Notes under the pieces: model-generated | Database searches by the model: none | Told to the model about the DNA's origin: nothing | Seen by the model: the letters and a program-made list of their open reading frames with translations, nothing else | Position numbers and translations under genes: made by a program | Part shown: positions 1,768 through 51,077 of the stretch, in pieces | How positions within the stretch are numbered: position 1 is the stretch's first letter | Layout: every line of letters begins with the position of its first letter | Virus record (IMG/VR): IMGVR_UViG_3300050190_000114 | DNA from: a virus | Direction: 5' to 3' (one strand) | Length of the DNA: 53,692 nt

Positions 1768-2186
1768 TCAAAACGCATAAATTCGTACCGAGCGGTGGAG
1801 ACGGTTGCCAACAGTGCGGATTCGGGCCGGGAGCGCTTGAGCACAACACCAGCCAGTCAGAATGGAAACGAATCACCGACCCGGAGACATTCCACGAGCC
1901 GCCGAACTATTACAACCGGGGCGGATACCATTGCTTCGACGTGATGGACGCGCTCGGACTGTTCACAAAATACTACATCGCTTCCGCGTTCACCTATATC
2001 TGGCGGTGTGATTTCAAAGGTGACGCCGCCGAAGCGCTCCGCGATCTGAAGAAAGCGCGCCGATACATCGACTGGGAAATTAAGCGGCGAGAGACAGCCG
2101 ACGAGCGGACCTCACACCCCGACCCGCAGCCCACCTCCATTCAACAACCAAACCGAGAAGAAGGCTTCCCAATTCTCCCAACATGA
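1752..2186 (+). CDS. DUF3310-like phage protein
   Basis: SD GGAGGT lies 5 nt before ATG 1752. The track ORF 1653..2186 is in the same frame. YYNRGGYHCFDVMDALGL...FTYIWRCDFKG...DLKKARRYIDWEI resembles the DUF3310 signature as I recall it. Confidence 0.6.
   Translation: MGSNVVKTHKFVPSGGDGCQQCGFGPGALEHNTSQSEWKRITDPETFHEPPNYYNRGGYHCFDVMDALGLFTKYYIASAFTYIWRCDFKGDAAEALRDLKKARRYIDWEIKRRETADERTSHPDPQPTSIQQPNREEGFPILPT
2103..2145 (+). repeat. R1 repeat copy 1 (GCGGACCTC..ATTCAAC)
   Basis: Member of the 15-copy family. Lies in the 3' end of 1752..2186, 38 nt before the next start. Confidence 0.85.
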
Positions 2187-2431
2187 CCCCCACCCGTCTA
2201 CGTGAGATAGCTTCCCGTGTCGAAAGAGTCTGCTCCAATTATCAGGAGTTGATCGGAGGCGGGTACATGCCTTGCCGGGGATGTCAGGAAGCAGCCCTTG
2301 AACTGAGAGCGCTTGCCGCGGCGGGGTTATCGCCTGGCCCGACGCCAGTGAAACGGAAGCCATCAAACGAAATGGATCATCAACCGCGCAATACGCAACC
2401 AGAACCGCAGCAACCGGAGCCAGCCGCATGA
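2183..2431 (+). CDS. Hypothetical protein
   Basis: ATGA overlaps at both ends. Confidence 0.55.
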   Translation: MTPTRLREIASRVERVCSNYQELIGGGYMPCRGCQEAALELRALAAAGLSPGPTPVKRKPSNEMDHQPRNTQPEPQQPEPAA

Positions 2432-2826
2432 AATTCTGGAACTGGATTCTCACCAAACTCGGCAAACGCTTCCCGTTACCACCCCGGCATATCTTGACCT
2501 ATGAGGAAATCAGCCGGTATTGGATGTCGATGAGCGAGTGTTGGCAGAGGCAGTGCTTGATTACCGTGTTGCGGATTCGGAAGCCGGTAAAGGGCGATGA
2601 GCGTCCGAATATCTGGGTGGTACCGCCTTTGTTCTCGCCTACGCAATGGTGGCCGAGCCGAGTCGATATCCTCGGCAAGCTTGGGCGGCCCGAGCCTAAC
2701 AAGGATCTGATCGACCCGAACAACAGGGAGCGCGACCCGTTCACCATCCGTATCGATCGAGAATGGGAACGTCAGCCAGGAATAAAAGTAAAAGAAGAGG
2801 TATGCATAGCTAATTTTGAGTTATGA
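2428..2826 (+). CDS. Hypothetical protein
   Basis: ATGA overlaps at both ends. Confidence 0.6.
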   Translation: MKFWNWILTKLGKRFPLPPRHILTYEEISRYWMSMSECWQRQCLITVLRIRKPVKGDERPNIWVVPPLFSPTQWWPSRVDILGKLGRPEPNKDLIDPNNRERDPFTIRIDREWERQPGIKVKEEVCIANFEL

Positions 2827-3140
2827 CAGAGAATGAGTGTTTGAATGGAGGTGGTCTGCAAGGTTTCGGAAGCGTGGTCCGCTCGTGTACTTGGCAGGAC
2901 ATTCTTAATACTCGGGGCTACGTCATTATTGTCCCAACATGTCGAGACGAGCGGGTCGAAATTGGCGTACCCATTACCTTCACAGTGACAAGTGGGAACC
3001 TGGGAGACTTGGCACCCGGTTTGCTTCTCCCAATTATGGAAACGACATTTGCCGATTTTTTAGAGCAAGCTAAGATGTATCCTAACCCTGCCATATGGTG
3101 CGGAGAAACAGATAGGTATTACCGATGCATAGCCGAATAA
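2823..3140 (+). CDS. Hypothetical protein
   Basis: ATGA overlap with the upstream stop. The N-terminus is encoded by a reverse-oriented R1 copy. Confidence 0.55.
   Translation: MTENECLNGGGLQGFGSVVRSCTWQDILNTRGYVIIVPTCRDERVEIGVPITFTVTSGNLGDLAPGLLLPIMETTFADFLEQAKMYPNPAIWCGETDRYYRCIAE
2839..2884 (-). repeat. R1 repeat, reverse orientation (GTTTGAATGGAGG..GGTCCGCTC)
   Basis: Its reverse complement matches the R1 consensus. Confidence 0.8.
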
Positions 3141-3145
3141 ATCAG

Positions 3146-3190
3146 GGCGGACCTCACTTCCCAACACGCAGACTGCCTCCATTCAAAAAC
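3146..3190 (+). repeat. R1 repeat, intergenic copy at the convergent junction
   Basis: Sequence GGCGGACCTCACTTCCCAAC..CCTCCATTCAAAAAC. Not inside any plausible ORF. Confidence 0.85.
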
Positions 3191-3201
3191 AAAAAGAATA
3201 G

Positions 3202-3531: not shown

Positions 3532-3893
3532 TGAACCGATTCGGGTTTGGGCTCGACGGGCGGCGCGGACTCTTGCTCGTCAGTGCGCGGTAGCGTGATG
3601 GCGTGGAGATATGTGCGCCACTCCTCTTGTTTAGCGAGCGAGTATGCATCAAGCGAATCGAGACACGCCAGCAAGCGCCAGCGCTGAAACCAGCCGTTAT
3701 CCTGAACCAGCATGTTGAAGCGGCTAACCGGGAGTTTCTGATTGTTCGCGGTGCATCGCTTGTTGCGCGGGTCGATGTGAAAAGCGATCCGATTGAAGAA
3801 GGCGGTACGCTCCCGCTTCTCGTGGTCTTCATCCATGATTGGATCGGGATCTGTTTCGATCACGGCGCCGCAGAGTTTGCAGGAGCCTTTCAC
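3528..3893 (-). CDS. Hypothetical protein
   Basis: 4-nt overlaps at both ends. Confidence 0.6.
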   Translation of the reverse strand: MKGSCKLCGAVIETDPDPIMDEDHEKRERTAFFNRIAFHIDPRNKRCTANNQKLPVSRFNMLVQDNGWFQRWRLLACLDSLDAYSLAKQEEWRTYLHAITLPRTDEQESAPPVEPKPESVQ

Positions 3894-4947: not shown

Positions 4948-5220
4948 TCATTTCGGTTGAAACTCGTTACAGCGGAATTCGGCGTGAGTTGCGAGTATCC
5001 CGGTTACCTTCGGGCTTCCGATGGCGATAAAGCGGGGCCGCTCCTCCGGGTGCTCGGAAAAGTAGACGGTCTCGGTTTGCTCTTGCGCTCGTTTGCAGTG
5101 GCCCCAGTTTGGATGCACGGTGTTTTTGTATTTCCAGAATCGGCACGTTGAGCAAGGGCCGGTCACAATCGCCACCGAGCGGACCACGCGCCGGAAACCT
5201 TTTTGTACAGCCGATGCCAA
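4948..5220 (-). CDS. Small Cys-containing protein
   Basis: Pattern CSTCRFW..GHC..FRC. Operon position. Confidence 0.5.
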   Translation of the reverse strand: MASAVQKGFRRVVRSVAIVTGPCSTCRFWKYKNTVHPNWGHCKRAQEQTETVYFSEHPEERPRFIAIGSPKVTGILATHAEFRCNEFQPK

Positions 5221-7707: not shown

Positions 7708-7907
7708 CGCATCCTTATATATTGGCCGCGTCACTGTGCCCGATCCGTGCGAACCATTGCGCGGCCGCAGAATACTCGGTCAGAATATCGAAAACAAGCG
7801 TTGCCCAACATTCTCAAGCGGCATTCTATGTTTCCGCGCTCCCGCAAGCCGGAAACCTTCCTTTGCTGGTCAACGGCGGTTTATCCACAGTCGAGGAAAA
7901 CCTGTGA
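7704..7907 (+). CDS. Bridge ORF A (sense ORF filling late cassette A)
   Basis: ATGA overlap with the upstream stop and GTGA overlap with the downstream start. L5 core at 7747-7764. L3 block at 7851-7886. Confidence 0.45.
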   Translation: MTHPYILAASLCPIRANHCAAAEYSVRISKTSVAQHSQAAFYVSALPQAGNLPLLVNGGLSTVEENL

Positions 7908-8554
7908 TACTCCCGATCACCTTAACCGGCAGGCTCGGGCTACCAGGTGGAGGTGTTCCCAACTTCGCACTCGATTCCCAAGGAAACGTAATCGGCGCCG
8001 AGTTCTGGCCTTCAGGATCAGACGCCAGTGGAGTGGATCCGGCAACCGGCGAACCGATGACCGCGGAATCCGGCAGCTCGTCACCGTTTACTAACGATGC
8101 CTCCGTGTGGACCGGAGAAACCCCAGGAGCCCCCAGCATCCTCGATATCGGCTCAAGCGTTCTCAACGTCGGATCGCGGCGCAACACCAGGGGTACGCAG
8201 TGGGACCGGATAGGATCGCAGCGAAGCGAATCGCAGTTTGATAAATGGCGAAGAGCAGGACGTCCGACCGCTTGCTCCAAAGGAATCGGCGATTACACAT
8301 TGTCGAACGGAATGCCGTGCGATCCAACCGTATACGGAGCCGTGCTGTGCCAGGACACAACGCAGCGGATTCTCAACGCGATCGCTGCAGGCGCGAGCGT
8401 AGCGGCCGGCACTCAGGTTCAGCCAGCATACGGAACGCCGGGATATGTCGGCACGCTTCCGCAAGTGGCAGTAGCAGGCTCAGCTTCACCTGGCGCATGG
8501 ATTGTTGGGATAGCAGCCGTAGCAGCAGTTATCTATCTGGTGAAGAACCGATGA
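7904..8554 (+). CDS. Late protein with a C-terminal TM anchor
   Basis: GTG start preceded by GAGGAA and the L3 block. Same frame as track ORF 7676..8554, whose N-terminal extension covers cassette A. Confidence 0.65.
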   Translation: MILPITLTGRLGLPGGGVPNFALDSQGNVIGAEFWPSGSDASGVDPATGEPMTAESGSSSPFTNDASVWTGETPGAPSILDIGSSVLNVGSRRNTRGTQWDRIGSQRSESQFDKWRRAGRPTACSKGIGDYTLSNGMPCDPTVYGAVLCQDTTQRILNAIAAGASVAAGTQVQPAYGTPGYVGTLPQVAVAGSASPGAWIVGIAAVAAVIYLVKNR

Positions 8555-9123
8555 ATCAGGTTTTGAATACAGGCGGCGCAGGCGGTCAAGGCAAACGGGA
8601 GCGCGGCGGCTGTGCTCGCACCCGGAAACAGAAGGTCACCGACCGGGCAAAGCGGTACCGGGCCAATCAACAGGCTTGCCGTCCATCCGGTTCTCGAGAA
8701 TGCGCCATCTGTGGTTCGACTCGTTTTCTAACCATCGACCACAAAGACGGTGACGAATCGAACGGCGCGAAATCTAACCTCCGCTGGCTCTGCAAATCAT
8801 GCAACACGCGGGAAGGGGCGAAGATGGCCAGAAAGGGCAAGGGCCGAAGAACGGCTCAGTACAACCCAGGCGCTCAATCGCTGGGCGAATACGTCAACGC
8901 CGTTCTGCAGCATACCCGCAAGGCGCATGACGAAGGCGGGCGCATCATCCACGAAACCCCGAAGTCTAAGCGCAGGGAATACGCTTCGGAAATCTGGAGC
9001 GCCCGTCAAGCGCGCGGCAACCCGCTGAAGAAGTGGACGCCGGCGACACTGAACGGCGCACGGGTACGGATTCGGGCGGTGGGCAAGGGGCTGCAGATTG
9101 ATCTCGGCAAGGTGGGGCGCTGA
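8551..9123 (+). CDS. HNH-motif basic protein in the structural module
   Basis: ATGA overlap. Motif CAICGS..LTIDHKDGDESNGAKSNLRWLCKSCN. The C-terminal WTPATLNGARVRIR segment is shared with the next protein. Confidence 0.6.
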   Translation: MNQVLNTGGAGGQGKRERGGCARTRKQKVTDRAKRYRANQQACRPSGSRECAICGSTRFLTIDHKDGDESNGAKSNLRWLCKSCNTREGAKMARKGKGRRTAQYNPGAQSLGEYVNAVLQHTRKAHDEGGRIIHETPKSKRREYASEIWSARQARGNPLKKWTPATLNGARVRIRAVGKGLQIDLGKVGR

Positions 9124-9536: not shown

Positions 9537-10252
9537 GCACAGTTCCACAATACGAATGGACCGGCTGGAGACGCACCGGCTATCAGATGCCTCACTGGGG
9601 ACTCTCCGGGAGTTCTCAGCAGGGAGACGCGAAAGCTGTAGCCGGATCATTGCAGCAGATGGCATCGGCAGCCACCAAGGCCGGCATCCCGATCGCGGGC
9701 GCAGTGTTGGAAGCGGGCGCCGCGCTGGCAAATATCGTCTCGCTGTTTGGCCCCAATCCAAACAACACCATCACAACCGAATGGGTAAACCAGATGGAAG
9801 CGGACGTAATGAAGCCGAACCTTGCAGCGTGGCAATCTCTCGCACCGGAAGAAAAGACACCCCAAGCTCAGCAGTACGCCCTGGAAGTTTTCAGCCAGGG
9901 CTGGAATCAGATCGTGCAATTATGCTCCAATCCCCAGCTCGGCTCGGCAGGATCAAACTGTCTGAAGGATCGGCAGCGTGGCGGTAAGTGGGACTGGTTT
10001 GGATACTACTACGATCCGATTGCAAACGATCCGGCAGTAGCGGCCAATGTCGCAGCGGCAAAAGTGGCGGCGCAAAGTTCCACACCGGGCGCACCTGTCA
10101 ACACTAGCACGCCGGGCTCGGCGGGCGGCAGCAACACCGCATCCGCTTCAGGCTCTACAACTGTTTCCAACTCAAGCACGAATCTCTACTTGTGGGGCGG
10201 GCTTGCTTTAATCGCTTTCGGATTGGGTTACGTCCTCACGGAGAACGACTGA
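9533..10252 (+). CDS. Late membrane protein (C-terminal TM, Ser/Thr-rich linker)
   Basis: ATGA overlap. C-terminal LWGGLALIAFGLGYVL. Confidence 0.65.
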   Translation: MSTVPQYEWTGWRRTGYQMPHWGLSGSSQQGDAKAVAGSLQQMASAATKAGIPIAGAVLEAGAALANIVSLFGPNPNNTITTEWVNQMEADVMKPNLAAWQSLAPEEKTPQAQQYALEVFSQGWNQIVQLCSNPQLGSAGSNCLKDRQRGGKWDWFGYYYDPIANDPAVAANVAAAKVAAQSSTPGAPVNTSTPGSAGGSNTASASGSTTVSNSSTNLYLWGGLALIAFGLGYVLTEND

Positions 10253-39769: not shown

Positions 39770-39775
39770 GATTTT

Positions 39776-40627: not shown

Positions 40628-40634
40628 ACAGCCC

Positions 40635-40684: not shown

Positions 40685-40730
40685 AAATCATCCGTGAACA
40701 ATTGGAGAGGTTTGAAGTGAGCGTTTAGCA

Positions 40731-41399: not shown

Positions 41400-41402
41400 A
41401 CA

Positions 41403-41487: not shown

Positions 41488-41493
41488 CAATTC

Positions 41494-41640
41494 ATGAATT
41501 GCAACTGCTACTACTGGACACTGAAGTTTCACCAGTGTAAAGCGCTCGCGGGTAAGCCAGTGCAAGCACCAGCCGACAAGCGGACCTCCGATCCCAACCC
41601 GCAGCCGACCTCGATTCAAACCCAAAAGGAAGGTCTCTAA
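41494..41640 (+). CDS. 48-aa first rightward ORF (below the track cutoff, possibly leaderless)
   Basis: The ATG lies 6 nt after the -10. Translation MNCNCYYWTLKFHQCK. The 3' end is an R1 repeat. Confidence 0.4.
   Translation: MNCNCYYWTLKFHQCKALAGKPVQAPADKRTSDPNPQPTSIQTQKEGL
41579..41621 (+). repeat. R1 repeat
   Basis: Sequence AGCGGACCTCCGATCCCAACCCGCAGCCGACCTCGATTCAAAC. Confidence 0.9.
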
Positions 41641-41642
41641 CC

Positions 41643-41858
41643 ATGGATAACGATCAACTACTAAATCAGATTCAAGGGCTCTTGGAAGGGATGGAGCGGC
41701 GCTTCGATCAGAAGATTGCCGATCTTGGAACCCGCCTCACGGCCCGCATCGATCGCTTAGACAACCGCCTTGAAATGCTGGCCGGTATCGTCGCCATTCT
41801 CACTCCGGTTGTCATCCGGCTCGACTCCCGCGTTCAAAAACTGGAGGATGCAAAGTGA
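41643..41858 (+). CDS. Small coiled-coil protein
   Basis: SD AAAGGAAGG. Heptad-like sequence. Confidence 0.55.
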   Translation: MDNDQLLNQIQGLLEGMERRFDQKIADLGTRLTARIDRLDNRLEMLAGIVAILTPVVIRLDSRVQKLEDAK

Positions 41859-42094
41859 CCTTTGAAATCCCCTGCCAGGGATGCTCCGGCGCTGGATTCT
41901 TCGGCGGCAACGGCCCCACTGTTGAACGCAAGTGCGAAGCGTGCGACGGAAGAGGCGTACTCGTCGAAGATACGCTAGCTAATGTATGGCCCGTTCCGAA
42001 GTCTGTTTTCGCGTCAATGACCAGAGACGAAGGGCAAAAGCTGTTCAATCAGATTCAGGAGAATAGGATGCATCGGGAGGATTTTGGTGTCTAA
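41855..42094 (+). CDS. DnaJ-type CxxCxGxG zinc-finger protein
   Basis: Motifs CQGCSGAG and CEACDGRG. GTGA overlap. Confidence 0.6.
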   Translation: MTFEIPCQGCSGAGFFGGNGPTVERKCEACDGRGVLVEDTLANVWPVPKSVFASMTRDEGQKLFNQIQENRMHREDFGV

Positions 42095-42761
42095 AAGAAA
42101 ATTTAATAGTCTGGGTACGCCACCCAAGAAAGCTCAGAAGTTGGCCGCGTCAGTCGCTACGGACTCGGACTCGGCATTGCGCGAAGGCAACCGTGCGCCG
42201 GGTAAAAAACATGAGCTCGTAACCGCTGCCCGCGCGAAACAAATACGGGACTTTGCCCGCTCATTCAAACAACTCTGCGACGTTTACCAGTTGGATGTTT
42301 TCGCCAGCATCGACGGAGACTTCATCGAGATCGTGGAGCGCAATGTCAAGTATCCGAATGGGTACGAATACAGCGGCATGATGAAGGGCATTTATGGCGG
42401 AAGGTTGCAGGGTCTCTATATCGAGCGCGAATGTGAAGACGACGAAGCCGACGCCGCGTCTGTTTCCGCAGGTTCGGAAATACCCGAGCGCGGAAGTCCC
42501 TGGACCCTCGATGAAATAATCGAACTGGCGAAAACGGCTATCGATAATGGGCTGGACTATGTAAGCGTCGCACCGGGCACGCTACCTTCATTCCAGGAGG
42601 AGTTTGAATTCCAATTGCACGCCCCCGAGCACAGCGGGCGACCATTACCGACGCCGGCTCAACTCGCCGTAGCGCTTGCCATCTGGAACGCCGACGAACG
42701 GACCTCTGGCCCAAAATTCCCGCACGCGCCCGAATTCAAACCCAAAGGAGACACCGCGTGA
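42084..42761 (+). CDS. Hypothetical early protein
   Basis: ORF from the track. Contains an L5 core (42169-42183) and an R1 copy. Confidence 0.55.
   Translation: MVSKRKFNSLGTPPKKAQKLAASVATDSDSALREGNRAPGKKHELVTAARAKQIRDFARSFKQLCDVYQLDVFASIDGDFIEIVERNVKYPNGYEYSGMMKGIYGGRLQGLYIERECEDDEADAASVSAGSEIPERGSPWTLDEIIELAKTAIDNGLDYVSVAPGTLPSFQEEFEFQLHAPEHSGRPLPTPAQLAVALAIWNADERTSGPKFPHAPEFKPKGDTA
42696..42741 (+). repeat. R1 repeat
   Basis: Sequence GAACGGACCTCTGGCCC..CCCGAATTCAAAC. Ends 16 nt before the next start. Confidence 0.8.
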
Positions 42762-43306
42762 TAATCAGACCAGAACCCAACAAGCCTCTAACTGTAAACT
42801 TGCTCTACCCTTCCGCCAAAGAGAAGCCAGGCCGAAGTGGAATCGATTTCATGTACACCCTAGTGGGCGGAAACGCGCTCTTCGTCCCACCAGTGGCTCA
42901 CGATGAAATCCAGAAGCTCCACGCCGGCCCAGGCGAACCGTTCACGCTTCTGAAAACCATCGGGCAAGGAAATCAGGCGCAATGGAAAGTGGAGAGGATT
43001 GTACAACCGAGCGCCCCGCCTTCGGAGGAAGAAACGAGACGCCCGGTTCCTAGCACAATTGCCCCACGGTCTATCACAAACCGGACCAATGGCAAGGTCC
43101 CAGTTTCAGTCATGCCAGCCGCACCGACTTTGAGCACTCCGCAATCGCGGACTCTCGTTAAGCAACTCTTTGCATCGGTCGATGCCTGGAAGTTGACGAA
43201 AGAATACGCCAGGAGTCAGGGAATCGAGCTAGAACCCACCAGCCGGGATATCTGCGCGCTGGCGATCACGGGCGGAATTCAGGTATTTAAGGAGGGGGTG
43301 TACTGA
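42758..43306 (+). CDS. Hypothetical early protein
   Basis: GTGA overlap. Confidence 0.6.
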   Translation: MIIRPEPNKPLTVNLLYPSAKEKPGRSGIDFMYTLVGGNALFVPPVAHDEIQKLHAGPGEPFTLLKTIGQGNQAQWKVERIVQPSAPPSEEETRRPVPSTIAPRSITNRTNGKVPVSVMPAAPTLSTPQSRTLVKQLFASVDAWKLTKEYARSQGIELEPTSRDICALAITGGIQVFKEGVY

Positions 43307-44283
43307 TGGAGCCCGGTACCGTACATTCGATTTGGGAGTTGGCAGAGAATCTGAATCAGCGCGTGAAGAAGTTGGAGGTGTCGTTGGCATCAGCGGTACC
43401 GCCCGGTTCAGAGTCGGGATTGCGCGGGAAATATTTACACCGAATCCGGAGGGTCAAAACCCATTTAGGATCGCCATCAGAGATTCCGGTGGGCTGTATC
43501 GGCGCCGACTTCGTGCTTTTTAGTGACCAAGAATACCAGACCTTGATCCACACTCCGCTGCCAACAAGCGGACCTCCCACTCCAGACCTCGCAGACAGCC
43601 CGAATTCAAACACTGAAAATCCCGACACCCTAGTTCCTGTCTGGATAAGAGAATACGTTCAGCGGCAGATAGATCAGAGGTTGGGCTCAACGGTACCGCC
43701 CGGTTCAGAGTCGGCATTGCGCGAACAATGGAGCCTGCCGGGATCTGTAGAGAGTGGCCTAGCTCCACTTGACCAATGGGACCTACTTGGTGAACTGGCG
43801 AGAATCGCGAAGGATCGAGATCAAGTACGTAAGACGTGTAACGAATACGCGGGACATCTTCATTCTGGCGGCGCGTTTATCGGCGGGAAGCCAGCATCAG
43901 TAGAAGATGTACGCGCATGGATGGCCCGGCGCGATGCCAACTCACGACAGCCAGCGGGCGGACCTCCCACACCAGACCTTGCGGGCAGCCCGGATTCAAA
44001 CACTCAACCATACCTGGACCCGTATTATGGAACACCACCGTCTGAAATTGTCGATAAAACTCCACAGCATCGCATCGGAGTTCACGACTACGCCTCTTTA
44101 GTCTCCGCATTGCGATCTAATTTTAAGCAAGTATTTGGAGACGATCAGCCGTTGACTGATCCACAAGACATGATCCAGCGGTTGACGGCAGAAATTCGGA
44201 GATTGAAGGGAGGCAGTGAGCAAGGTTTCGGTCGTGCGGTCCGCCTGCCGACTGAGGAAAACGGGCCGGAGGACGAGGCATGA
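43306..44283 (+). CDS. Early protein built from two repeat-containing modules
   Basis: Contains two L5-like blocks and two R1 copies in the order L5-R1-L5-R1. Confidence 0.6.
   Translation: MEPGTVHSIWELAENLNQRVKKLEVSLASAVPPGSESGLRGKYLHRIRRVKTHLGSPSEIPVGCIGADFVLFSDQEYQTLIHTPLPTSGPPTPDLADSPNSNTENPDTLVPVWIREYVQRQIDQRLGSTVPPGSESALREQWSLPGSVESGLAPLDQWDLLGELARIAKDRDQVRKTCNEYAGHLHSGGAFIGGKPASVEDVRAWMARRDANSRQPAGGPPTPDLAGSPDSNTQPYLDPYYGTPPSEIVDKTPQHRIGVHDYASLVSALRSNFKQVFGDDQPLTDPQDMIQRLTAEIRRLKGGSEQGFGRAVRLPTEENGPEDEA
43383..43427 (+). repeat. L5-like block inside a coding sequence
   Basis: Sequence GTTGGCATCAGCGGTACCGCCCGGTTCAGAGTCGGGATTGCGCGG. Confidence 0.75.
43567..43611 (+). repeat. R1 repeat (mid-gene)
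   Basis: Sequence AGCGGACCTCCCACTCCAGACC..CCCGAATTCAAAC. Confidence 0.85.
43681..43723 (+). repeat. L5-like block inside a coding sequence
   Basis: Sequence TTGGGCTCAACGGTACCGCCCGGTTCAGAGTCGGCATTGCGCG. Confidence 0.8.
43957..44001 (+). repeat. R1 repeat (mid-gene)
   Basis: Sequence GGCGGACCTCCCACACCAGACC..CCCGGATTCAAAC. Confidence 0.85.
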
Positions 44284-44591
44284 GCAACGAACTACAAACC
44301 GCACTAGCTCTCGCTGTAACCGGGCTCGAGCAATCAAAACGTGAGCTACTGGAAATATTCGCATGGGCGAGCACACCTCGAATGATAAGCCCAGAGGAGC
44401 GATCCCGCCATGCAATGGCAATCGCCCTGGCACGTTCAAGCCTGCCGGTTATCGACAGCAGCTTACGTCAGTCCTTCAAGATTCTGACCGGCCATAATCC
44501 CCCGGCTATGGGAGACTGGCCGGAAACAGCGGACAAGCGGACCTCCGACCCCAACCCGGCATCCGGCCTCGATTCAGACAAAAAGGATTAA
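44280..44591 (+). CDS. Hypothetical early protein
   Basis: ATGA overlap. The 3' end is an R1 repeat. Confidence 0.55.
   Translation: MSNELQTALALAVTGLEQSKRELLEIFAWASTPRMISPEERSRHAMAIALARSSLPVIDSSLRQSFKILTGHNPPAMGDWPETADKRTSDPNPASGLDSDKKD
44536..44579 (+). repeat. R1 repeat
   Basis: Sequence AGCGGACCTCCGACCCCAACCCGG..CCTCGATTCAGAC. Confidence 0.85.
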
Positions 44592-44595
44592 ATCC

Positions 44596-44814
44596 GTGCT
44601 TCTTTGGGAAACTTCAGCCGATAAGAACTCCATGCCCCAAGCAGACCTTTTTGAAGCCCTTTCAGGATTCTACGATGCTGAAAAAGAGCAGGATTTATTA
44701 CGAGCAGCAACCTGGCTGAGACATCTGGAGTTTTTAAAATATATGCAGAGTTTGCAATCGACCAGTACCGCGACCCCAAGCGGGTACGAGGGCGGCGAGA
44801 GGCGGCGCGGGTGA
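44596..44814 (+). CDS. Hypothetical early protein
   Basis: GTG start. GTGA-coupled to the next gene. Confidence 0.5.
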   Translation: MLLWETSADKNSMPQADLFEALSGFYDAEKEQDLLRAATWLRHLEFLKYMQSLQSTSTATPSGYEGGERRRG

Positions 44815-45638
44815 CAAAGATCGAGTGGACTGATGAAACCTGGAACCCGACGCGCGGTTGTTCTCGAGTTTCGGAAGGTTGCCGATACTGTTACGCCGAG
44901 CGCCAGGCGGCTAGGAACCTGCCAGGTAGCCGATCCCCCACAACCGGCGAAGCCTTCGCCATTCTCACCGACTCCGGCCCGCGTTGGACCGGCAAAGTCG
45001 AACTGATCGAATCAAAACTAACCGAACCACTCCACTGGAAGACCCCCCGGCGTGTGTTCGTCAATTCGATGAGCGACCTATTCCATGAGCAGTTGCCGGA
45101 TGAGGCGATAGACCGCGTTTTCGCCGTGATGGAAGTCACCCGGCACATCACGTACCAGGTGCTCACAAAGCGCGCCGAACGGCAGCGGGCTTACATAATA
45201 AACCGATGGCGGCGCGTCGGTGGACTCTTGAGCGAACAGGGTAAACGGCCACTCGATAATGTCTGGCTCGGGGTATCGGTCGAAGACAAGACCAACAAAT
45301 ACAGGATCGATCTTTTGCGCCAGACGCCGGCCGCGGTTCGATTTTTGTCGATAGAACCTCTACTCGAAGACATCGGCGAACTGGACTTGACCGGCGTCCA
45401 CTGGGGTATCGTAGGCGGCGAATCCGGCCCGCAGGCGCGGCCGTGCGACCTCGCATGGATCGAATCCACCGTTGACCAGTTCGGATCCGCTGGCGTGCCT
45501 CTATTCGTCAAGCAGGTAGGCACAAGGCCGGGATATCAACGTAAAAACGGCTGGCGAGATATCGACCTGAAAGATTCCAAGGGCGGCAACTGGGATGAGT
45601 GGCCGCAAAAGCTCCGCGTCCGGGAGTTTCCCCGATGA
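44811..45638 (+). CDS. Phage Gp37/Gp68 family protein (DUF5131-like)
   Basis: N-terminus KIEWTDETWNPTRGCSRVSEGCRYCYA, plus FLSIEPLL and GGESGP. Confidence 0.8.
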   Translation: MTKIEWTDETWNPTRGCSRVSEGCRYCYAERQAARNLPGSRSPTTGEAFAILTDSGPRWTGKVELIESKLTEPLHWKTPRRVFVNSMSDLFHEQLPDEAIDRVFAVMEVTRHITYQVLTKRAERQRAYIINRWRRVGGLLSEQGKRPLDNVWLGVSVEDKTNKYRIDLLRQTPAAVRFLSIEPLLEDIGELDLTGVHWGIVGGESGPQARPCDLAWIESTVDQFGSAGVPLFVKQVGTRPGYQRKNGWRDIDLKDSKGGNWDEWPQKLRVREFPR

Positions 45639-45865
45639 AACCACCCACCGAAGCCGATCTGATCGAAATCGAGAATCACGTTTTGAAAACGTGGCAGATC
45701 GCCGAAGCTGAAGGTGGAAACCGGCCCTGGCGCATAGTGAGGACCCTGGAATACTTGATAGAGATGGCCCGCCTTCGTGTAGTGCGACCAATTCCCCCGA
45801 TGCCACCGCGCAAAGCTAAGCCTAAACCCGTTTCCAGCGTTCAACCCAAACCCAAAAACCGTTAA
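45635..45865 (+). CDS. Hypothetical small protein
   Basis: ATGA overlap at 45635, same frame as track ORF 45599. Confidence 0.5.
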   Translation: MKPPTEADLIEIENHVLKTWQIAEAEGGNRPWRIVRTLEYLIEMARLRVVRPIPPMPPRKAKPKPVSSVQPKPKNR

Positions 45866-46023
45866 TGCCTATACTTTTATACAACTTAGAACTTACTGAA
45901 GATGAAATCATTCACCTCTGGGCTTTATTGGCCATGCGAACCTTGAAAATCTCGCCACTTATCAACCTGGAGGAGTCGATGTTGCAAAAAATAGAAGAGA
46001 TGCTCCAGGTTAAATCCCGATGA
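45865..46023 (+). CDS. 52-aa ORF in a locally AT-rich segment (below the track cutoff)
   Basis: TAATG and ATGA overlaps at its ends. Translation MPILLYNLELTEDEIIHLW. Confidence 0.4.
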   Translation: MPILLYNLELTEDEIIHLWALLAMRTLKISPLINLEESMLQKIEEMLQVKSR

Positions 46024-46346
46024 GAGCCTACGCCGTCGCCAATACAGCCCTTACAGCGCATCCGAAACTAACCCGGCACTCTGACTACCTCCGGTTTATC
46101 CGACGCCAGCCCTGCGTAGTCTGTGGCGCGCTGTATACCATCGAGGCGGCGCATTCAGGGGTTAGGGGATTGGGACAGAAGGCGGATGACTTATTCACCC
46201 TGCCACTTTGCCGGCATCACCACCGAACCGGACCTCATTCTCACCATAAGCTTGGGAAGAGGTTCTGGGGTCATCATGCGCTTGATAGAGTAACTCTCAT
46301 AAGGGAACTGCAACGCCTCTGGAAGTTGGAAAATGGAAACCTTTAG
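46020..46346 (+). CDS. DUF968-like Cys/His zinc-binding (HNH-related) protein
   Basis: Pattern QPCVVCG..AHS..LPLCRHHH. Confidence 0.5.
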   Translation: MRAYAVANTALTAHPKLTRHSDYLRFIRRQPCVVCGALYTIEAAHSGVRGLGQKADDLFTLPLCRHHHRTGPHSHHKLGKRFWGHHALDRVTLIRELQRLWKLENGNL

Positions 46347-47208
46347 GGCTGTTCCGGGGTACGAGGGCATTTATGAAGTTTCCGTTGATGGCACTATTCA
46401 GCGGATAGCCGGCGGAAAAGGTGCCGTTCCAGGCCGACATCTTCGCCCACGGATCGGAGACAACGGTTACCCGTATGTGAATCTATGGCGCAACTGTAAA
46501 GGTCGATCTTTGACTGTCCACAGTATTGTAGCCGCTGCTTTTCTCGGCGAGCGACCGCCAGGTTTTGAGGTTAACCACGAAGACGGCGACCGCACGAATC
46601 CAAAATTAGGAAACCTGGAGTACACCGCTCAGGACGATAACCGCCGACACTCTTGGAATGCTGGATTGTGCCCAGTTGGTGAACATCACGGTTCAGCCGT
46701 CCTGACCGAAGCGACCGTTCACTCCATCCGCGTACGCTACAAAACTGGCGAAAATCACATATCTATCGCCAAAAGCGTGAAGTTCCCGACCCGTTATGTC
46801 AAAGATGTACTTCGCGGGAAAAACTGGTTTTGGCTTCAGACTTCCGGTATAGACCTCATTGAATTGGCTGAATTGTTTCAAAATCGCTACCCTGCTGAAC
46901 GCTCTGGAAAATGGAGGTTGAAACCGTGTCCCGAAATCATAACAGGCTCAAATCTCAACCCTTCGTACAGGATGACTCAAAGAACGCGCCGATACGACCC
47001 GATCAAGCCGGAAGATCGCCAATTTCTCATGGATAAATTTGCTGGGTTATGCGCCTACTGCGGAAATCTGGCTTCGACTCTCGATCACGTTCTAGCTGTG
47101 AAACTCGGCGGCAGAAGTGTCCGAGAGAATCTCCTACCCGCCTGCCAATCGTGCAACAGCCGTAAAAATGATCGAACCTTAGAAAACTTCATACTGTCCA
47201 CTAAGTAG
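46333..47208 (+). CDS. Free-standing homing-type endonuclease: NUMOD4/HNH_3-like N-terminus plus a second C-terminal HNH
   Basis: Motifs VPGYEGIYEVSVDGTI, VHSIVAAAF, VNHEDGDRTNPKLGNLEY and CAYCG..LDHV..CQSCNSRKND. Confidence 0.8.
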   Translation: METFRAVPGYEGIYEVSVDGTIQRIAGGKGAVPGRHLRPRIGDNGYPYVNLWRNCKGRSLTVHSIVAAAFLGERPPGFEVNHEDGDRTNPKLGNLEYTAQDDNRRHSWNAGLCPVGEHHGSAVLTEATVHSIRVRYKTGENHISIAKSVKFPTRYVKDVLRGKNWFWLQTSGIDLIELAELFQNRYPAERSGKWRLKPCPEIITGSNLNPSYRMTQRTRRYDPIKPEDRQFLMDKFAGLCAYCGNLASTLDHVLAVKLGGRSVRENLLPACQSCNSRKNDRTLENFILSTK

Positions 47209-47255
47209 GCGGACCTCCCACCCGTAACCCAGCAGCCGACCTCCTATTCAAAAAC
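47208..47255 (+). repeat. R1 repeat, intergenic copy
   Basis: Sequence GGCGGACCTCCCACCCGTAACCC..CCTCCTATTCAAAAAC, immediately after the stop of 46333..47208. Confidence 0.85.
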
Positions 47256-47557
47256 TGAAAACCCAGTTCGTAAAATAGTCCAGTCCAAGAGCAGGAAACA
47301 TCCAGCCGAGTTCCTTTTTAAAAACTCTATCTATATTGTCTTTAAGAAGTAACCGTAAGAACCGCTTGCGGGAGAAAAAATCCTTCTTGCCGAAACACTA
47401 TGAATGGGTGTATGGTGGGTGAGTCTGAAAATGACTCCAAAAAGCAGAAAGGCCGGAGCGGTTAAACTTTTCCCAAAGTCCGCATCCAGCCTCACCGAAC
47501 AATGTCACCATACCACACTAATTTAGCGAAGGCAAGTAGAAACTGGGGGATTCACCA

Positions 47558-48580
47558 GTGACGGCCCCGGTTCCACCATCAGAATCCATCCAAACCGGCA
47601 TAACCGGCAACTGGACCCGTACCAGGCCGGCATTCTTCCGCGGGCTCGCCCGACACCTGGAATACGCCGAGGATAAATGTTTCGGGCTAATTCTTCAATC
47701 AACGGTGGGCCGCGGCCGGAGTTGGGAAAAGGTCACCTGGAAACGATTCTGCGACGTGGCCGGCGTGACCCGGCGCAGATGTGAACAGGCGATAGCGTCC
47801 CTACTCGGCAAAGAAGATCCAGACCAACCAGGTGTCTATATGGACGGGTTAATCCGCCAAAGGAAAGCGGTCACGGGCGGCGGATTCGAGTACTCGATAG
47901 CAGCTCGGGCCGAAAATATCCAATCAAGTATCGCCAAATGCCGCGGCTGCGGGCAGACTGGCGAAGTGGACCTCGACCTCGATTTCATCCCCGTCCCTCA
48001 CTCCTTCTTCCTGAATCTGCCGGCATCCTGCGACCACGGCATGTACCTTGTCGTCAAAACCGTCGTAGAACGCACGATGCGATGGGACAAGGAAACAAAG
48101 CAAATCGTAATTGTCCCGTGCGAAATCACGATAGAGGAATTCGAGAGGGCCACCGGGAAGAAGCGGGCTGAAATTCTGAGCGACCTTCAAAAAGTACAGG
48201 CCGAGTGTTACCAATTCATCGGATCGGAAAGCGCCGGTCGCGGAAAGCGATACTGGGCCAGACCGGAAAACTTCGCATCAGCTCCGGCGCGCGCGGCTCG
48301 AGAAGTTAAGCAACCAAAAGAGCGAAAGAAACGGGAAACCGAAAAGACTCCAAATCCACCGCAACCGATTGAACCCACAAAGACCATACGTCCAGTTGAG
48401 TTCGTAACAGTTCCGTGTGGAGTTTGCCGGCATTGCCAGTGCTACGGGCCTGTAGATATCGTGGCCGAGGCGGATCGAGCGCCGAAAAAGCCAGCGGCCC
48501 GGGCGCGCGAGGGTCCAATACCCGAAATTTTTGCACCCGGCAAGCCCTGGCAAGCACCCTGGAAACAAAAACAAGCGTAG
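47558..48580 (+). CDS. Putative replication initiator or DNA-binding protein (function by position only)
   Basis: GTG start after a 350-nt AT-rich gap. Lies directly upstream of DnaB. Basic C-terminus. Confidence 0.35.
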   Translation: MTAPVPPSESIQTGITGNWTRTRPAFFRGLARHLEYAEDKCFGLILQSTVGRGRSWEKVTWKRFCDVAGVTRRRCEQAIASLLGKEDPDQPGVYMDGLIRQRKAVTGGGFEYSIAARAENIQSSIAKCRGCGQTGEVDLDLDFIPVPHSFFLNLPASCDHGMYLVVKTVVERTMRWDKETKQIVIVPCEITIEEFERATGKKRAEILSDLQKVQAECYQFIGSESAGRGKRYWARPENFASAPARAAREVKQPKERKKRETEKTPNPPQPIEPTKTIRPVEFVTVPCGVCRHCQCYGPVDIVAEADRAPKKPAARAREGPIPEIFAPGKPWQAPWKQKQA

Positions 48581-48603
48581 ATTTAGAAGAGGAGTGTGCG
48601 CAG

Positions 48604-49929
48604 TTGGACGAGATAGCCCTACCTTGCGACCTGCCAGCGGAGCGGCTGGTTTTAGGCTCGATCATTTTAGAGCACCAAAAGCACGCCGAAGTATTTCAAC
48701 TTTTGGCGGCCGATGATTTTATCCTCGAGAAACACCGGCGCATCTATGGCGCGTTACATGCGATGGACGCCACCGGCCTGGAAATCGACCGGGTCACCAT
48801 CGCCAGCTATCTCAATGATCGTCACGAGCTCCAATCGGTTGACGGAATCGCCTACCTGACCTCGCTCGACACCGGCTTACCGGAGATGCCCAGCGTGGAA
48901 TCCTACGTGGATATCATCCGCGAGAAAGCAGCGCTTCGAAAAATCATCGTCACGTCCCAGAATCTCATCAACCGTTGCGTATCAACTCAGGGCGATTCAA
49001 AAGAACTGATCGCGCTGGCGGAAGACGCGCTCACAAAGATCGGCTACAAGCCAGAGCAGACCGCCGAGGTGCTTGGATTGGAACAAGTGATTGAGCAGTC
49101 TGGCGGCCTCGACCGTTTTCTAAATCCGCATCAAACCGCGACCTTCGTGAAAACCCCTTGGGTGAAACTTACCGACATGACCGGGGGATACCGGCGCAAG
49201 GAACTATTTTTGCTCGCCGGCAACCCGTCGATGGGAAAAAGCGCGGCCGCGGTTCAGGTAGCCATGAGCGTAGCCCAGGCCGGCTTAGGTGTTCTCATCT
49301 TTTCGCTTGAGATGTCGCGCGCCTCTTTATTCACTCGGATGATGTGTACGCTTTCCCGCGTCGACGGGGCGAAACTCCGGGCCGGATATCTCAATCAGGA
49401 GGAACGCACTCGGATCCAGAAAGCTATCCAGCAGATTTTAAGCTGGCCGCTTTGGATCGCCGAGTATGGAATCTCGACAGTGAGCGCAATCCGCGCCGCG
49501 GTTCGGCGGAAGAAAACCAAGCAGCAGGATATTTTTATGGTAGTGATCGACTACCTTCAACTTTTGCAATCGATAGGGAAGCACGCCAACCGAAACGCGG
49601 AAGTGTCCGAGATCACCCGGCAGTTGAAACTTTTAGCGGCTGATGAGGATGTCAACGTACACCTCCTGTCGCAATTGAACCGGGATAACCTGAAAGAGCG
49701 CCGCGCGCCGGCCCTGCACGACCTCCGGGACTCCGGAAGTATTGAGCAAGACGCCGACGCGGTAGCCTTCGTATGGCGCCCGGAGATGCTCCACCGGGAA
49801 CGCGAGGACCTGCACGGCCTGGCGGAATTGTTGCTCTGGAAACAGCGCAACGGACCAACCGGGAAAATAGAGCTGACCTGGCTGGGTCACATTACAGCCT
49901 TTGAAAATCGAGCGGAGGATCTGGAATGA
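48604..49929 (+). CDS. dnaB: DnaB-type replicative helicase
   Basis: Motifs PAERLVLGSIIL, Walker A GNPSMGKS, VVIDYLQLL and RDSGSIEQDADAV. TTG 48604 follows GAGGAG. The track ORF 48415 is over-extended. Confidence 0.9.
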   Translation: MDEIALPCDLPAERLVLGSIILEHQKHAEVFQLLAADDFILEKHRRIYGALHAMDATGLEIDRVTIASYLNDRHELQSVDGIAYLTSLDTGLPEMPSVESYVDIIREKAALRKIIVTSQNLINRCVSTQGDSKELIALAEDALTKIGYKPEQTAEVLGLEQVIEQSGGLDRFLNPHQTATFVKTPWVKLTDMTGGYRRKELFLLAGNPSMGKSAAAVQVAMSVAQAGLGVLIFSLEMSRASLFTRMMCTLSRVDGAKLRAGYLNQEERTRIQKAIQQILSWPLWIAEYGISTVSAIRAAVRRKKTKQQDIFMVVIDYLQLLQSIGKHANRNAEVSEITRQLKLLAADEDVNVHLLSQLNRDNLKERRAPALHDLRDSGSIEQDADAVAFVWRPEMLHREREDLHGLAELLLWKQRNGPTGKIELTWLGHITAFENRAEDLE

Positions 49930-50102
49930 CGCGAGACGAAAAGCACGCCGACGCACACCTGATGCAAGCCAAAGAGGACGTGAAAGAAGCGTTCCGACTC
50001 ATCGACCCAGCCGCGATAGAACCCGCAGCGAAAGCCATCGTGAAGGCGATGGATTCCATCGACGCGGCCAGAAAAGCGTTAAAAGAGAGAGGCCCGAAAT
50101 GA
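49926..50102 (+). CDS. 58-aa helical protein (below the track cutoff)
   Basis: ATGA overlaps at both ends. Confidence 0.5.
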   Translation: MTRDEKHADAHLMQAKEDVKEAFRLIDPAAIEPAAKAIVKAMDSIDAARKALKERGPK

Positions 50103-50413
50103 GCGAGCATCAATGTCACGCGGTTGGATGCGGCGTCCCCGTTCCACCCAAGATGCATATGTGCCTCACACACTGGCGCATGGTCCCCAAGGCGGTGCAG
50201 GATTTAATCTGGCGGCATTACCGGCCCGGCCAAGAGATCGATAAGCAACCGAGCGCGGATTACATCGTCACAGCGTTCGTTTCTATTTCGTGCGTTGCGC
50301 TGAAAGAAGGGAAGCCACTGCCAACGATGGTTCCGCCAAAGACAGCGAACGAGCGGACCTCACTTTTGAACGGGAGTGCCGAGCCCGAATTCAAACACGG
50401 AGAATTTGTATGA
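50099..50413 (+). CDS. Small Cys/His protein
   Basis: Pattern CHAVGCG..MHMCLTHW. The 3' end is an R1 repeat. Confidence 0.55.
   Translation: MSEHQCHAVGCGVPVPPKMHMCLTHWRMVPKAVQDLIWRHYRPGQEIDKQPSADYIVTAFVSISCVALKEGKPLPTMVPPKTANERTSLLNGSAEPEFKHGEFV
50351..50396 (+). repeat. R1 repeat
   Basis: Sequence GAGCGGACCTCACTTTTGAACGGG..CCCGAATTCAAAC. Confidence 0.85.
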
Positions 50414-51077
50414 GCGCAGCCTCTGCAACCCCCACGCGGAACCGGACGCGCCGCGAGTGTCCAACTGCCCGGTACACGGAGGCAGACTAGGCGACTGGAT
50501 TCAAACTTTCACCGGGCTTGTTATGTATCCGCTCGATCCCCGGCCCGAAGAAATATGCATCGAGGATATCGCCCATGCGCTTTCAAACCTCTGCCGATTC
50601 ACCGGCCACTGCCGGGAGTTCTACAGCGTAGCCGATCACAGCGTCCGCGTGAGCTATACCTGCGATCCGAAGGATGCCCTGTGGGGATTATTGCACGATG
50701 CGCCGGAGGCGTACCTCGCGGATATGAGCCGGCCCGTCAAGCGATTCTCCGAGTTTGGCCGCATATATCAGGGGATTGAAGATCGTCTCATGGAAGTGAT
50801 TGCGGAGAAATTCGGCCTGCGACCGGGATACCTTGCGCCCGCCAATGTGAAACACGCCGATGCGGTTTTACTCGCGACTGAAAAGCGCGATTTGATGCAA
50901 GGTTGTTTCAAGCCGTGGGAAAACCCAGCCGAGCCGCTGCGGACTGTTATCAGGCCGCTCTCCCCAGGGGACGCGCGCCTAAACTTCATGCGCCGGTTTC
51001 GGCAGTTGACAGCCAACGAGCGGACCTCACTTCCCAACGGGAGCGACTGGTTAGATTCAAAATCGGAGAATAGTTAA
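50376..51077 (+). CDS. HD-domain phosphohydrolase (YfbR-like 5'-deoxynucleotidase family)
   Basis: Motifs DWIQTFTG, IEDIAHALSNLCRFTGH, SVADHS and LLHDAPEAYLADM. The start is uncertain (GTG 50376, TTG 50406 or GTG 50457). Confidence 0.75.
   Translation: MPSPNSNTENLYERSLCNPHAEPDAPRVSNCPVHGGRLGDWIQTFTGLVMYPLDPRPEEICIEDIAHALSNLCRFTGHCREFYSVADHSVRVSYTCDPKDALWGLLHDAPEAYLADMSRPVKRFSEFGRIYQGIEDRLMEVIAEKFGLRPGYLAPANVKHADAVLLATEKRDLMQGCFKPWENPAEPLRTVIRPLSPGDARLNFMRRFRQLTANERTSLPNGSDWLDSKSENS
51018..51062 (+). repeat. R1 repeat
   Basis: Sequence GAGCGGACCTCACTTCCCAACGGG..TTAGATTCAAAA. Ends 15 nt before ATG 51078. Confidence 0.85.

Follow-up and report, generated by a model that had tools for sequence, protein, structure and literature searches.

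The virus genome IMGVR_UViG_3300050190_000114 (53,692 nucleotides (nt), the whole of which is called the window here) carries three families of short repeated elements at its gene junctions, R1, R2 and R3. R1 had been noticed at the junctions of the early genes in an initial annotation of the same DNA, which saw neither the three-family system nor the inverted R1 copies that form left-hand arms. R1 resembles a linker for recombination, or the arm of a cassette, more than it does a simple promoter, and among the mechanisms that were weighed the linker reading fits the cassette data best. Our preferred interpretation, which the comparison of related sequences brings close to an even chance, is that R1 copies are portable, translation-tolerant junction modules that would serve as homology arms for cassette exchange and that probably also carry an expression signal. 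The initial annotation had listed module-boundary sequences that promote recombination among the possible roles of R1, and this suggestion gains direct support, by comparison with relatives, from the replacement of a cassette between R1 arms, from the presence or absence of a gene together with one R1 copy, and from a conserved R1–R2 patch between non-homologous genes.

R1 copies in the window were located by a profile search (nhmmer) with a profile built from the previously noted copies, which gave 16 strong matches (E = 1.7e-16 to 6e-10) and three weak ones. All 15 copies of the initial annotation are among the strong matches; the copies absent from it are a strong reverse copy at 1527–1581 and weak ones at 44199–44254 on the minus strand, 37636–37693 on the plus strand and 5171–5200, the last a partial plus-strand match (E = 0.0039) to the 5′ half of R1 that also lies in inverted-repeat I10. 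A degenerate partial copy formerly placed near 12290 is merely a 16-nt match (E = 0.47) and is not significant, and the element, first described as ~45 bp long, is actually ~55–60 nt, since semi-conservation extends upstream of GCGGACC to a CAGCSGAC block. Chance can be excluded as the source of the R1 motifs, since RATTCAAAC occurs 12 times against 1.15 expected; exact plus-strand matches to GCGGACCTC all fall within the listed R1 copies. R1 is confined to the 1.5–3.2 kb and 35–51 kb portions of the window, its non-structural region.

The other two families were found by repeat finding and then described by profiles. R2 (GTTTGGGCTCAAC..ACGGnCTC..TCGGCATTGCGCGG, ~80 nt) has at least 14 copies in the window, starting at 3534, 11469, 12698, 22805, 25420, 27295, 29640, 33101, 42127, 43369, 43667 and 51084 on the plus strand and at 40626 and 45799 on the minus strand, and lies either just past a stop codon or 10–20 nt past a start codon. 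R3 (..GGAAACCTT..CGACGGCGGTTTACC, ~70 nt) has 11 copies (plus-strand starts at 7837, 12935, 21056, 23332, 24469, 25956, 27365, 28344 and 33172, minus-strand starts at 36806 and 39760) and ends just ahead of the start codons of late (structural) genes; R1 does in the early region the same job as R3 in the late region. The three families together make up 44 elements that occupy 2,936 nt, or 5.5% of the genome. We also considered R2 as a reverse complement of R1 and rejected it: GTTTG is the sole stretch that they share, and the two profiles give no cross-hits. R2–R3 pairs are either adjacent, forming the whole intergenic spacer, or enclose 150–460 nt that are open and not codon-adapted, and R2...R1 pairs in the early region enclose 250–620 nt.

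Relatives of this genome were found by a pattern scan of IMG/VR, which gave the 56-kb relative IMGVR_UViG_3300021559_000001 (REL below) together with near-identical fragments; a metagenome scan added eight further fragments from soil samples with 65–84% nucleotide identity in shared genes, and two further contigs were reached via homologues of the 387-amino acid (aa) protein whose gene follows the R1 copy at 35197. R1, R2 and R3 are all present in every relative found, down to ~50% identity in the neighbouring protein; the homologue of the 387-aa protein in L512 is 52% identical, yet this contig has at least 10 R1, 9 R2 and 11 R3 copies in 21 kb. Individual copies have orthologues as well: the R1 copy at 35197–35255 at REL 4961, that at 42686–42747 at REL 12855, L498 4430 and L452 1378, that at 44526–44585 at REL 15747, and that at 3145–3193 in L489. 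R1 is thus not absent from all relatives, as the initial annotation had allowed it might be, but occurs in all that were found. The three repeats are absent from ~75 phages that share only the helicase-methylase (48–62% identity) and have no match among GenBank phages (megablast, blastn); for R1, 185,579 bacterial and archaeal species genomes (GTDB) gave nothing beyond single chance matches, and two 14-mer scans of IMG/VR for the R2 and R3 cores gave nearly all chance matches, with L298 as one true relative. Kept across these relatives and absent elsewhere, the repeat families are restricted to a single clade, within which they are old. The annotation of one homologue places it in a Bryobacteraceae metagenome-assembled genome, a weak lead which suggests that the host may be an acidobacterium.

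Across the clade, R1 was collected from 13 genome fragments, in 78 copies of which 76 are distinct. CGGA and TTCA never vary among them, and GCGGACC and ATTCAA are at least 90% conserved; the spacing between the GCGGACC and TTCAAAC boxes is 35 ± 1 nt (34–36 nt in 73 of the 76), and a RAC triplet lies 17–19 nt upstream of TCAAAC in 62 of 76 copies (exactly 18 nt in 44). R1 is not palindromic, and a single R1 has no dyad symmetry. CGGAC was examined as a short shared site and showed no enrichment.

Several arm-bounded cassette polymorphisms are seen between the window and its relatives. Conserved genes at 1331–1576 and 2183–2431 flank an inverted R1 followed by a forward R1 in the window, REL and L489, and the cargo between these arms measures 567 nt (window), 652 nt (REL) and ~160 nt (L489), with no nucleotide or protein similarity among the three. 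The window's arms, which bound the unit 1527–2148, are the inverted copy at 1527–1581 (E = 1.4e-10), where homology with the relatives breaks 10 nt inside, and the forward copy at 2093–2148 (E = 1.7e-11, translated in the frame that reads ERTS), and the cargo is a DUF3310 gene (1653–2186, Pfam). A patch consisting of R1, a Shine–Dalgarno (SD) sequence, ATG and R2 (51018–51110) aligns with REL, and the genes on both sides are non-homologous: upstream there is an HD hydrolase in the window and a small open reading frame (ORF) in REL, and downstream a 945-aa helicase-methylase in the window and a 565-aa helicase in REL, with 27% identity. The HD gene and one R1 are present in the window and absent from REL, and conversely an extra small gene with its R1, present in REL and in the near-identical strain L042, has been lost from the window.

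The R1 copy of this patch (51008–51068) forms the 3′ end of the HD gene and is followed by GGAGAA, ATG 51078 and R2. The R2 block (51075–51146) lies in frame between the SD that follows R1 and the helicase start, which is ATG 51147 in relatives that lack R2, and it is a clean, in-frame, stop-free indel of 70–95 nt between SD and start codon (present in the window, L062, L448 and L451, absent in L464 and L489). The first 23 codons of the helicase-methylase, a SNF2-type helicase fused to a DNA methyltransferase, are this R2 block; the gene spans the window ends (51078–53565 continuing into 1–350) and is missing both from the ORF listing and from our gene calls because the ORF runs off the window end. 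A further difference from L042, which is 97–99.9% identical to the window elsewhere, is the segment 45663–46020, whose 357 nt are replaced by 185 nt of a divergent homologue; it holds two small ORFs and an inverted R2 (45799–45857, E = 1.5e-7), and the replacement begins 26 nt past a shared ATG.

Inverted copies make up 17 of the 78 R1 copies of the clade, and 13 of these 17 are directly followed by a forward R1, so that the pairs bound units of 257–774 nt (label shuffles give a mean of 6.6, P = 0.0004). Their defined position behind start codons and their pairing with forward copies show the inverted copies to be more than noise. Left and right arms belong to different subtypes, and translation runs through the arms, which are joined to the cargo or make up a leader mini-ORF ending where the cargo begins; arm-only 'empty' R1 pairs occur at L459rc 1698–1812 and L512 7269–7378. 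Besides the DUF3310 unit, the window has the unit 2834–3193, whose left arm (2834–2892, minus strand, E = 2.5e-13) is the N-terminus of ORF 2823–3140 and whose right arm (3145–3193, plus strand, E = 2.5e-11) is intergenic at a convergent gene junction with no plus-strand gene downstream; the unit 37461–37693, whose left arm (37461–37522, minus strand, E = 3.4e-10) contains the beginning of ORF 37472–37708 and whose weak right arm (37636–37693, plus strand, E = 4.9e-4) is followed by AAAAGGA-N8-ATG 37705; and the unit 44199–44585, with a weak inverted left arm (44199–44254, E = 6.3e-5) and a right arm (44526–44585, plus strand) followed by AAAAAGGA and GTG 44596.

Paired arms of this kind are also what one would expect if R1, R2 and R3 were the ends of non-autonomous transposable elements, resembling MITEs (miniature transposable elements with inverted repeats) when empty and mobile insertion cassettes when they hold an ORF, and moved in trans by a putative transposase, recombinase or homing endonuclease that would bind or cut at TTCAAAC, its terminal site, and at GCGGACC, a subterminal one. 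The inverted pairs with their 257–774-nt units accord with this, as do the empty units (the R1 pairs above and the R2–R3 units 27295–27432 and 33101–33250), the inversion of one whole unit (39760–40684), the precise insertion or deletion of R2, the difference between left and right arm subtypes (like the left and right inverted repeats, IRL and IRR), the high copy number within one lineage, and the three HNH endonuclease genes in the genome, one of which is directly followed by R1. We nonetheless consider it unlikely: no target-site duplication was seen at any of seven units inspected by eye, the window showed no transposase or integrase domain, the GTDB species genomes yielded no copies, most R1 copies are solo, and R2 is not detectably the reverse complement of R1. 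The three cargos at exactly one site, with the arms in place, are better accounted for by an exchange between arms already resident there than by transposition on separate occasions. The in-frame Rickettsia palindromic elements, MITEs and mobile insertion cassettes are like R1 in having inverted terminal arms, an empty interior or a passenger ORF and no transposase inside, in high copy number and restriction to a lineage, and in tolerating translation inside ORFs (PMC10969869, PMC3913671). R1 differs from them in that no target-site duplication was seen, no cognate insertion sequence (IS) or transposase and no cellular copies were found, many arms are solo, cargo is exchanged at a fixed site, and the elements amount to 5.5% of a virus genome.

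In the linker interpretation a forward R1 closes a gene or small cassette, and an A-rich spacer and SD then lead to the next start codon; an inverted R1 is the left-hand arm just behind a start codon, a place that R2 can also occupy. Ribosomes would read through the arms, in frame or as a short leader ORF, and insertion of a module would therefore, we propose, leave the expression of a tightly packed operon intact. Since the same arms flank unrelated genes within the genome and among relatives, patches of 50–60 nt of homology are on offer, and ordinary phage or host homologous recombination at the arms would use them to insert, delete, replace and occasionally invert single-gene cassettes.

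Several observations weigh against so simple a scheme. Breakpoints of homology between the window and its relatives lie inside the repeats three times as often as at random positions but not more often than at gene boundaries in general, and the association is thus inseparable from that of a gene boundary. The deletion in the window relative to L042 (~42075) went via a 38-nt direct repeat beside R1 and not via R1 itself, the arms of one unit are no more alike than the arms of different units, and searches of ~60 ORFs against Pfam and PHROGs identified no recombinase or single-strand annealing protein. Moreover, the boxes have remained invariant at a fixed spacing over divergence to ~50% protein identity, and passive homology does not explain this invariance; a sequence-specific function is needed, for example as a site for a binding protein, a promoter or a transposase. 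In the linker interpretation the boxes would persist by also carrying an expression signal for the downstream gene, promoter-like or translation-related.

Alternatively, the boxes (the TTCAAAC tip and GCGGACC 35 nt inside) could be recognised by a sequence-specific protein that belongs to a dedicated viral gene-cassette system, in which single small ORFs would lie between a left arm (inverted R1 or R2) and a right arm (R1 or R3), both asymmetric and ~55 nt long, and cassettes would be slotted between genes in either orientation without interrupting translation. We regard such a system as doubtful; if real, it would be a viral counterpart of integron and mobile-insertion-cassette systems with separate arm types for early and late genes. 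R1 as an integron attC site, which would be an imperfect palindrome with RYYYAAC/GTTRRRY cores served by an integron integrase, was rejected, as a single R1 has no dyad symmetry and no tyrosine recombinase was found.

The forward copies of R1 bear on its relation to gene expression. The initial annotation described nine of them as ORF 3′ ends, two as intergenic and two as mid-ORF, and this description holds. The copy at 35197–35255 supplies the last 17 codons of ORF 34989–35255, and the ATG of the 387-aa gene follows 12 nt past TCAAAC; the copy at 38959–39012 is followed by AAAAAGGAG and ATG 39023 of a C1 peptidase gene, that at 41570–41627 by AAAAGGAAGG and ATG 41643, and that at 42686–42747, the right end of the R2...R1 unit 42127–42747, by AAAGGAG and GTG 42758. 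The copy at 37004–37065 lies within ORF 36664–37107 and is read in the SGPP frame. The copy at 50341–50402 is followed by GGAGAA-N7-ATG 50410, which opens a 26-codon mini-ORF (50410–50490) that has an ideal SD and, in a different frame, runs over the 5′ region of the HD-domain gene; the start candidates of the HD gene are GTG 50376, GTG 50457 and ATG 50523. Both mid-ORF copies lie in ORF 43306–44283 in the SGPP frame, at 43558–43617 (right end of the R2...R1 unit 43369–43617) and 43947–44007 (right end of the R2...R1 unit 43667–44007); this 325-aa ORF reads through R2-R1-R2-R1 and an inverted R1, as if three cassettes were fused into one protein, and its REL homologue (14656–15354) likewise reads through repeats. 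The intergenic copy at 47204–47259 stands directly after an HNH gene (46333–47208), and the next plus-strand ORF does not begin before 47558. This HNH gene is the third of three free-standing ones (the others are at 347–1057 and 8551–9123, and there is a DUF968 gene at 46020–46346); the second opens with a 23-nt inverted R1 tip (8556–8578, E = 0.017).

In the clade as a whole, 24 of 76 R1 copies are followed by an SD and a real start codon, which lies 9–21 nt past TTCAAAC (starts within 32 nt were counted; the control value is 8%), 16 have an ORF on the opposite strand, and 36 have neither. A gene start thus follows only about a third of the copies. On that count R1 fails as purely a promoter or purely a translation enhancer, and neither of these roles, which the initial annotation had also suggested, can be the whole story for R1.

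As a promoter, R1 would be specific to a class of early or middle genes, with R3 as its late equivalent, and would be read by an extracytoplasmic function (ECF) or sigma-E-type sigma factor, or else by the host RNA polymerase after its redirection by a phage factor. Its −35 core would be RAC and its −10 element TCAAAC, with GCGGACC as an upstream activator site and transcripts beginning in the A-rich spacer just ahead of the SD. The E. coli sigma-E promoter has the form GGAACTT-N16-TCAAA with a discriminator of 5–6 nt (PMC1312014), and the 3′ half of R1 matches its geometry: RAC precedes an invariant TCAAA(C) by 18 nt, and genes downstream start shortly after. The restriction of R1 to the non-structural and R3 to the structural region is what temporal classes of promoters would produce, the clade keeps the boxes invariant, the association with starts is enriched 4-fold, and R1 overlaps upstream ORFs in several frames, like T7-type promoters. 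Nevertheless, a credible start follows only the 24 copies mentioned; the 17 inverted copies would drive antisense transcription into the preceding gene, and others are mid-ORF (43558, 43947) or at a convergent junction without a downstream gene (3145). The −35 region is mostly CCCAAC or CAGAC rather than GGAACTT, the upstream sequence is GC-rich and not an A/T-rich UP element, and if transcription started 5–6 nt past TCAAAC, the SD would be left at the very 5′ tip of the transcript. The ~60 ORFs gave no match to a sigma factor or RNA polymerase, and canonical sigma-70-type promoters already head two early operons (41414–41487 and ~34845–34873). Taken together, these points leave a promoter-only role as a clearly minor possibility.

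The Pfam and PHROGs searches of the ~60 ORFs gave no sigma factor, RNA polymerase, integrase, transposase or annealing protein, and a PDB sequence search was uninformative. R1 as a sigma-70 promoter or a terminator was rejected, as its consensus contains no promoter and it has no structure; R1 as a promoter for a T7-like single-subunit RNA polymerase was rejected likewise, since there were no hits to such a polymerase and the helicase-methylase is the sole ORF of at least 800 aa. Mimicry of the anti-SD sequence (CCUCC in R1 against the SD) and a Rho rut site were considered, and no supporting structure was found.

The earlier observation that R1 has no obvious hairpin is borne out by RNAalifold, which gave 0 consensus pairs in 63 copies, and single copies fold no better than shuffled sequences (z-scores of 10 copies range from −1.21 to +1.78, 7 of the 10 positive); nor are R1-ATG-R2 composites, R2–R3 composites or empty pairs of inverted and forward R1 significantly more stable than shuffles. 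R1 might accordingly be thought to act at the RNA level, as an unstructured, C-rich, stop-free leader before the SD that would provide a ribosome standby site, translational coupling between adjacent cistrons or a processing site. Single copies that are no more and often less structured than shuffles, the lack of consensus structure, the constant distance of 9–21 nt to the start codon, and arms that are translated through or form leader mini-ORFs ending at the next start would all suit such a role. Avoiding structure, however, needs no two invariant boxes at fixed spacing, inverted copies are G-rich on the mRNA, about half of the copies lie away from any start, and neither the R1-early/R3-late restriction nor the cassette polymorphism would be explained, which makes this role improbable.

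The R1 sequence is stop-free in all three frames of its own strand in 62% of copies. As the initial annotation had recognised, the coding copies are translated in three frames (in the window, seven in the ERTS frame, three in the SGPP frame and one in the ADLP frame), and the 59 ORF-embedded copies of the clade include 36 ERTS, 15 SGP and 7 ADL. The majority of ERTS-frame copies might suggest that R1 encodes a functional C-terminal peptide tag (..TADERTSDPNP..NSN), but three frames are used, intergenic and inverted copies exist, similarity among the carrier proteins is restricted to the repeat itself, and variability is equal at codon positions 1, 2 and 3 (0.94, 0.82 and 0.91 bits). The use of three frames and this flat variability place the constraint at the nucleotide level and not on the peptide; the ERTS.. 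tail is a by-product of a nucleotide-level element, as had been supposed, and we reject the tag as hardly tenable.

R1 might also be one of many scattered sites that a phage regulator binds, comparable to the stoperators of Cluster A mycobacteriophages, which are asymmetric 13-bp gene-junction sites at which bound repressor blocks elongation (PMC9283540). R1 is similarly asymmetric, located at gene junctions, mostly co-oriented with transcription and present in many copies per genome, and the divergent promoter region with the adjacent 222-aa gene (40731–41399) would suggest a regulatory switch. Yet R1 is four times longer than a stoperator and its two boxes stand 35 nt apart, the 222-aa protein matches an endonuclease-like PHROG and no DNA-binding domain, and inverted pairs, empty units and cargo exchange would go unexplained; we consider a regulator site very improbable.

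Among known systems, R1 works most like the promoter-early stem-loop (PeSL) cassettes of the T4-type phages RB49 and phi1, which consist of a sigma-70 promoter and a terminator stem-loop and are truly intergenic (PMC2839356). Both are short conserved motifs that recur where small ORFan genes meet in a plastic, non-structural genome region, both bound insertions, deletions and replacements between related phages, and both can be read as linkers for homologous recombination, with an ORF plus motif as the cassette (PMC2839356). R1 is however not a member of this group, because it has no sigma-70 promoter and no stable stem-loop: its consensus contains neither TTGACA nor TATAAT, and a scan of 34000–53692 gave two incidental 9/12 matches over R1 (35230 and 47247). 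It is also usually inside the upstream ORF, takes an inverted orientation when it forms a left arm, and is one of three families with separate early and late versions. A further mark of PeSLs is the mini-circle that arises when neighbouring motifs recombine. The start-associated sequence (SAS) of Cluster K mycobacteriophages is a 13-bp element that contains the SD and lies 3–7 bp from the start, and the ESAS adds a 17-bp inverted repeat (PMC3203893). Like R1 these are asymmetric, located in the non-structural half, mostly in one orientation (although 17 of 78 R1 copies are inverted, and in a patterned way) and upstream of the starts of unrelated genes, and they are conserved across subclusters as R1 is in its clade (PMC3203893). 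R1 in contrast is 55–60 nt long, its core ends 9–21 nt before the start with the SD outside, it has no internal inverted repeat, and about half of its copies are not associated with starts.

The other R2 and R3 copies include the R2 at 11469–11546 (E = 1.2e-15), which fills the gap between a stop at 11459 and ATG 11535, and single R3 copies at 7837–7907 (E = 3.1e-11, ending at GTG 7904), 21056–21128 (E = 1.5e-10), 24469–24539 (E = 1.1e-13, ending at ATG 24531) and 28344–28414 (E = 5.3e-10, ending at ATG 28404); a further R2 lies at 29640–29720 (E = 4e-15). R2...R3 units on the plus strand lie between late genes at 12698–13004 (R2 12698–12780, R3 12935–13004), at 22805–23402 with a 450-nt interior that is open but not codon-adapted, and at 25420–26026 with a 460-nt interior. 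The interiors of the latter two (22803–23402 and 25409–26026) are open for ~200 codons in one frame, with codon-usage scores near or below zero against +0.14 for neighbouring genes and odd translations rich in R, H, W and C. 'Empty' R2–R3 units at 27295–27432, the whole intergenic spacer ahead of ATG 27426, and at 33101–33250, ahead of ATG 33224, are also on the plus strand. Elsewhere, plus-strand R2 copies are found at 3534–3601 (E = 3.5e-12), at 42127–42205 (E = 4.6e-15) near the N-terminus of ORF 42087–42761, and at 43369–43447 (E = 1.7e-12) and 43667–43745 (E = 2.2e-16), the left ends of the units 43369–43617 and 43667–44007. A partial plus-strand R2 (36843–36891) overlaps an inverted R3 (36806–36871, E = 5.7e-13). 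The inverted R3 at 39760–39826 (E = 1.3e-12), conserved at REL 9904–9961, is the 3′ end of the minus-strand unit 39760–40684 and with the inverted R2 at 40626–40684 (E = 1.9e-8) bounds this inverted two-gene unit.

The window is a complete phage-like genome of 53,565 bp plus an exact 127-nt terminal direct repeat (1–127 = 53566–53692), which shows it to be circularly closed or terminally redundant. Its G+C content is 55–58%, GenBank phages gave no nucleotide match to it (megablast, blastn), Rfam at the gathering threshold gave no known RNA families, and the genome has neither tRNA nor tmRNA genes. Between the minus-strand 222-aa gene and the plus-strand early operon there are back-to-back sigma-70-like promoters (41414–41487; minus strand TTGACA-17-TATACT, plus strand TTGACT-17-CAAAAT with TG), a region that looks from its sequence like a lysis/lysogeny-type switch; no integrase was seen. 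At 34264–34289, directly beyond the last late gene (stop 34233), a strong GC-rich hairpin of 11 bp whose T-run is on the minus strand is the best terminator candidate within the scanned 34000–53692. The 300-nt ORF-free stretch 47260–47557, between the R1 at 47204 and a 340-aa gene upstream of DnaB, is partly A/T-rich and 67–72% conserved in relatives, and could be a replication origin or a small RNA. Three neighbouring paralogous genes at 19292–21034 share a C-terminal module (52–65% aa identity, 112-nt DNA repeat D5), and the largest has an Ice-binding-like domain (PF11999, E = 4e-62); by these features they are likely tail-fibre or receptor-binding variants. A 55-nt repeat that encodes ..FPEPYNPIY.. 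occurs twice in ORF 14972–15346 (14997–15051 and 15066–15120) and once in ORF 21282–21908 (21766–21820); this repetition appears to be at the protein level and unrelated to R1–R3.

Phage genomes are mosaic at gene boundaries, and it is a long-standing question whether this mosaicism arises at conserved linkers or by random illegitimate recombination followed by selection. To our knowledge clear examples of linkers are rare, and the PeSLs of T4-type phages are the best one. R1 is best filed as repeat-mediated modular shuffling in phages, a kind of process already known, in a form that is new. On our preferred interpretation, this soil-phage clade would be a second and structurally different linker case, with ~45 junction modules per 53-kb genome that flank unrelated genes, have survived deep divergence and are tied directly to the replacement of cassettes and to insertion in frame. 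Should the boxes be recognised by a specific protein, this would be a new mobile-cassette mechanism in viruses, and the modules, if they work as proposed, would represent a natural design for adding genes to operons without polar effects.

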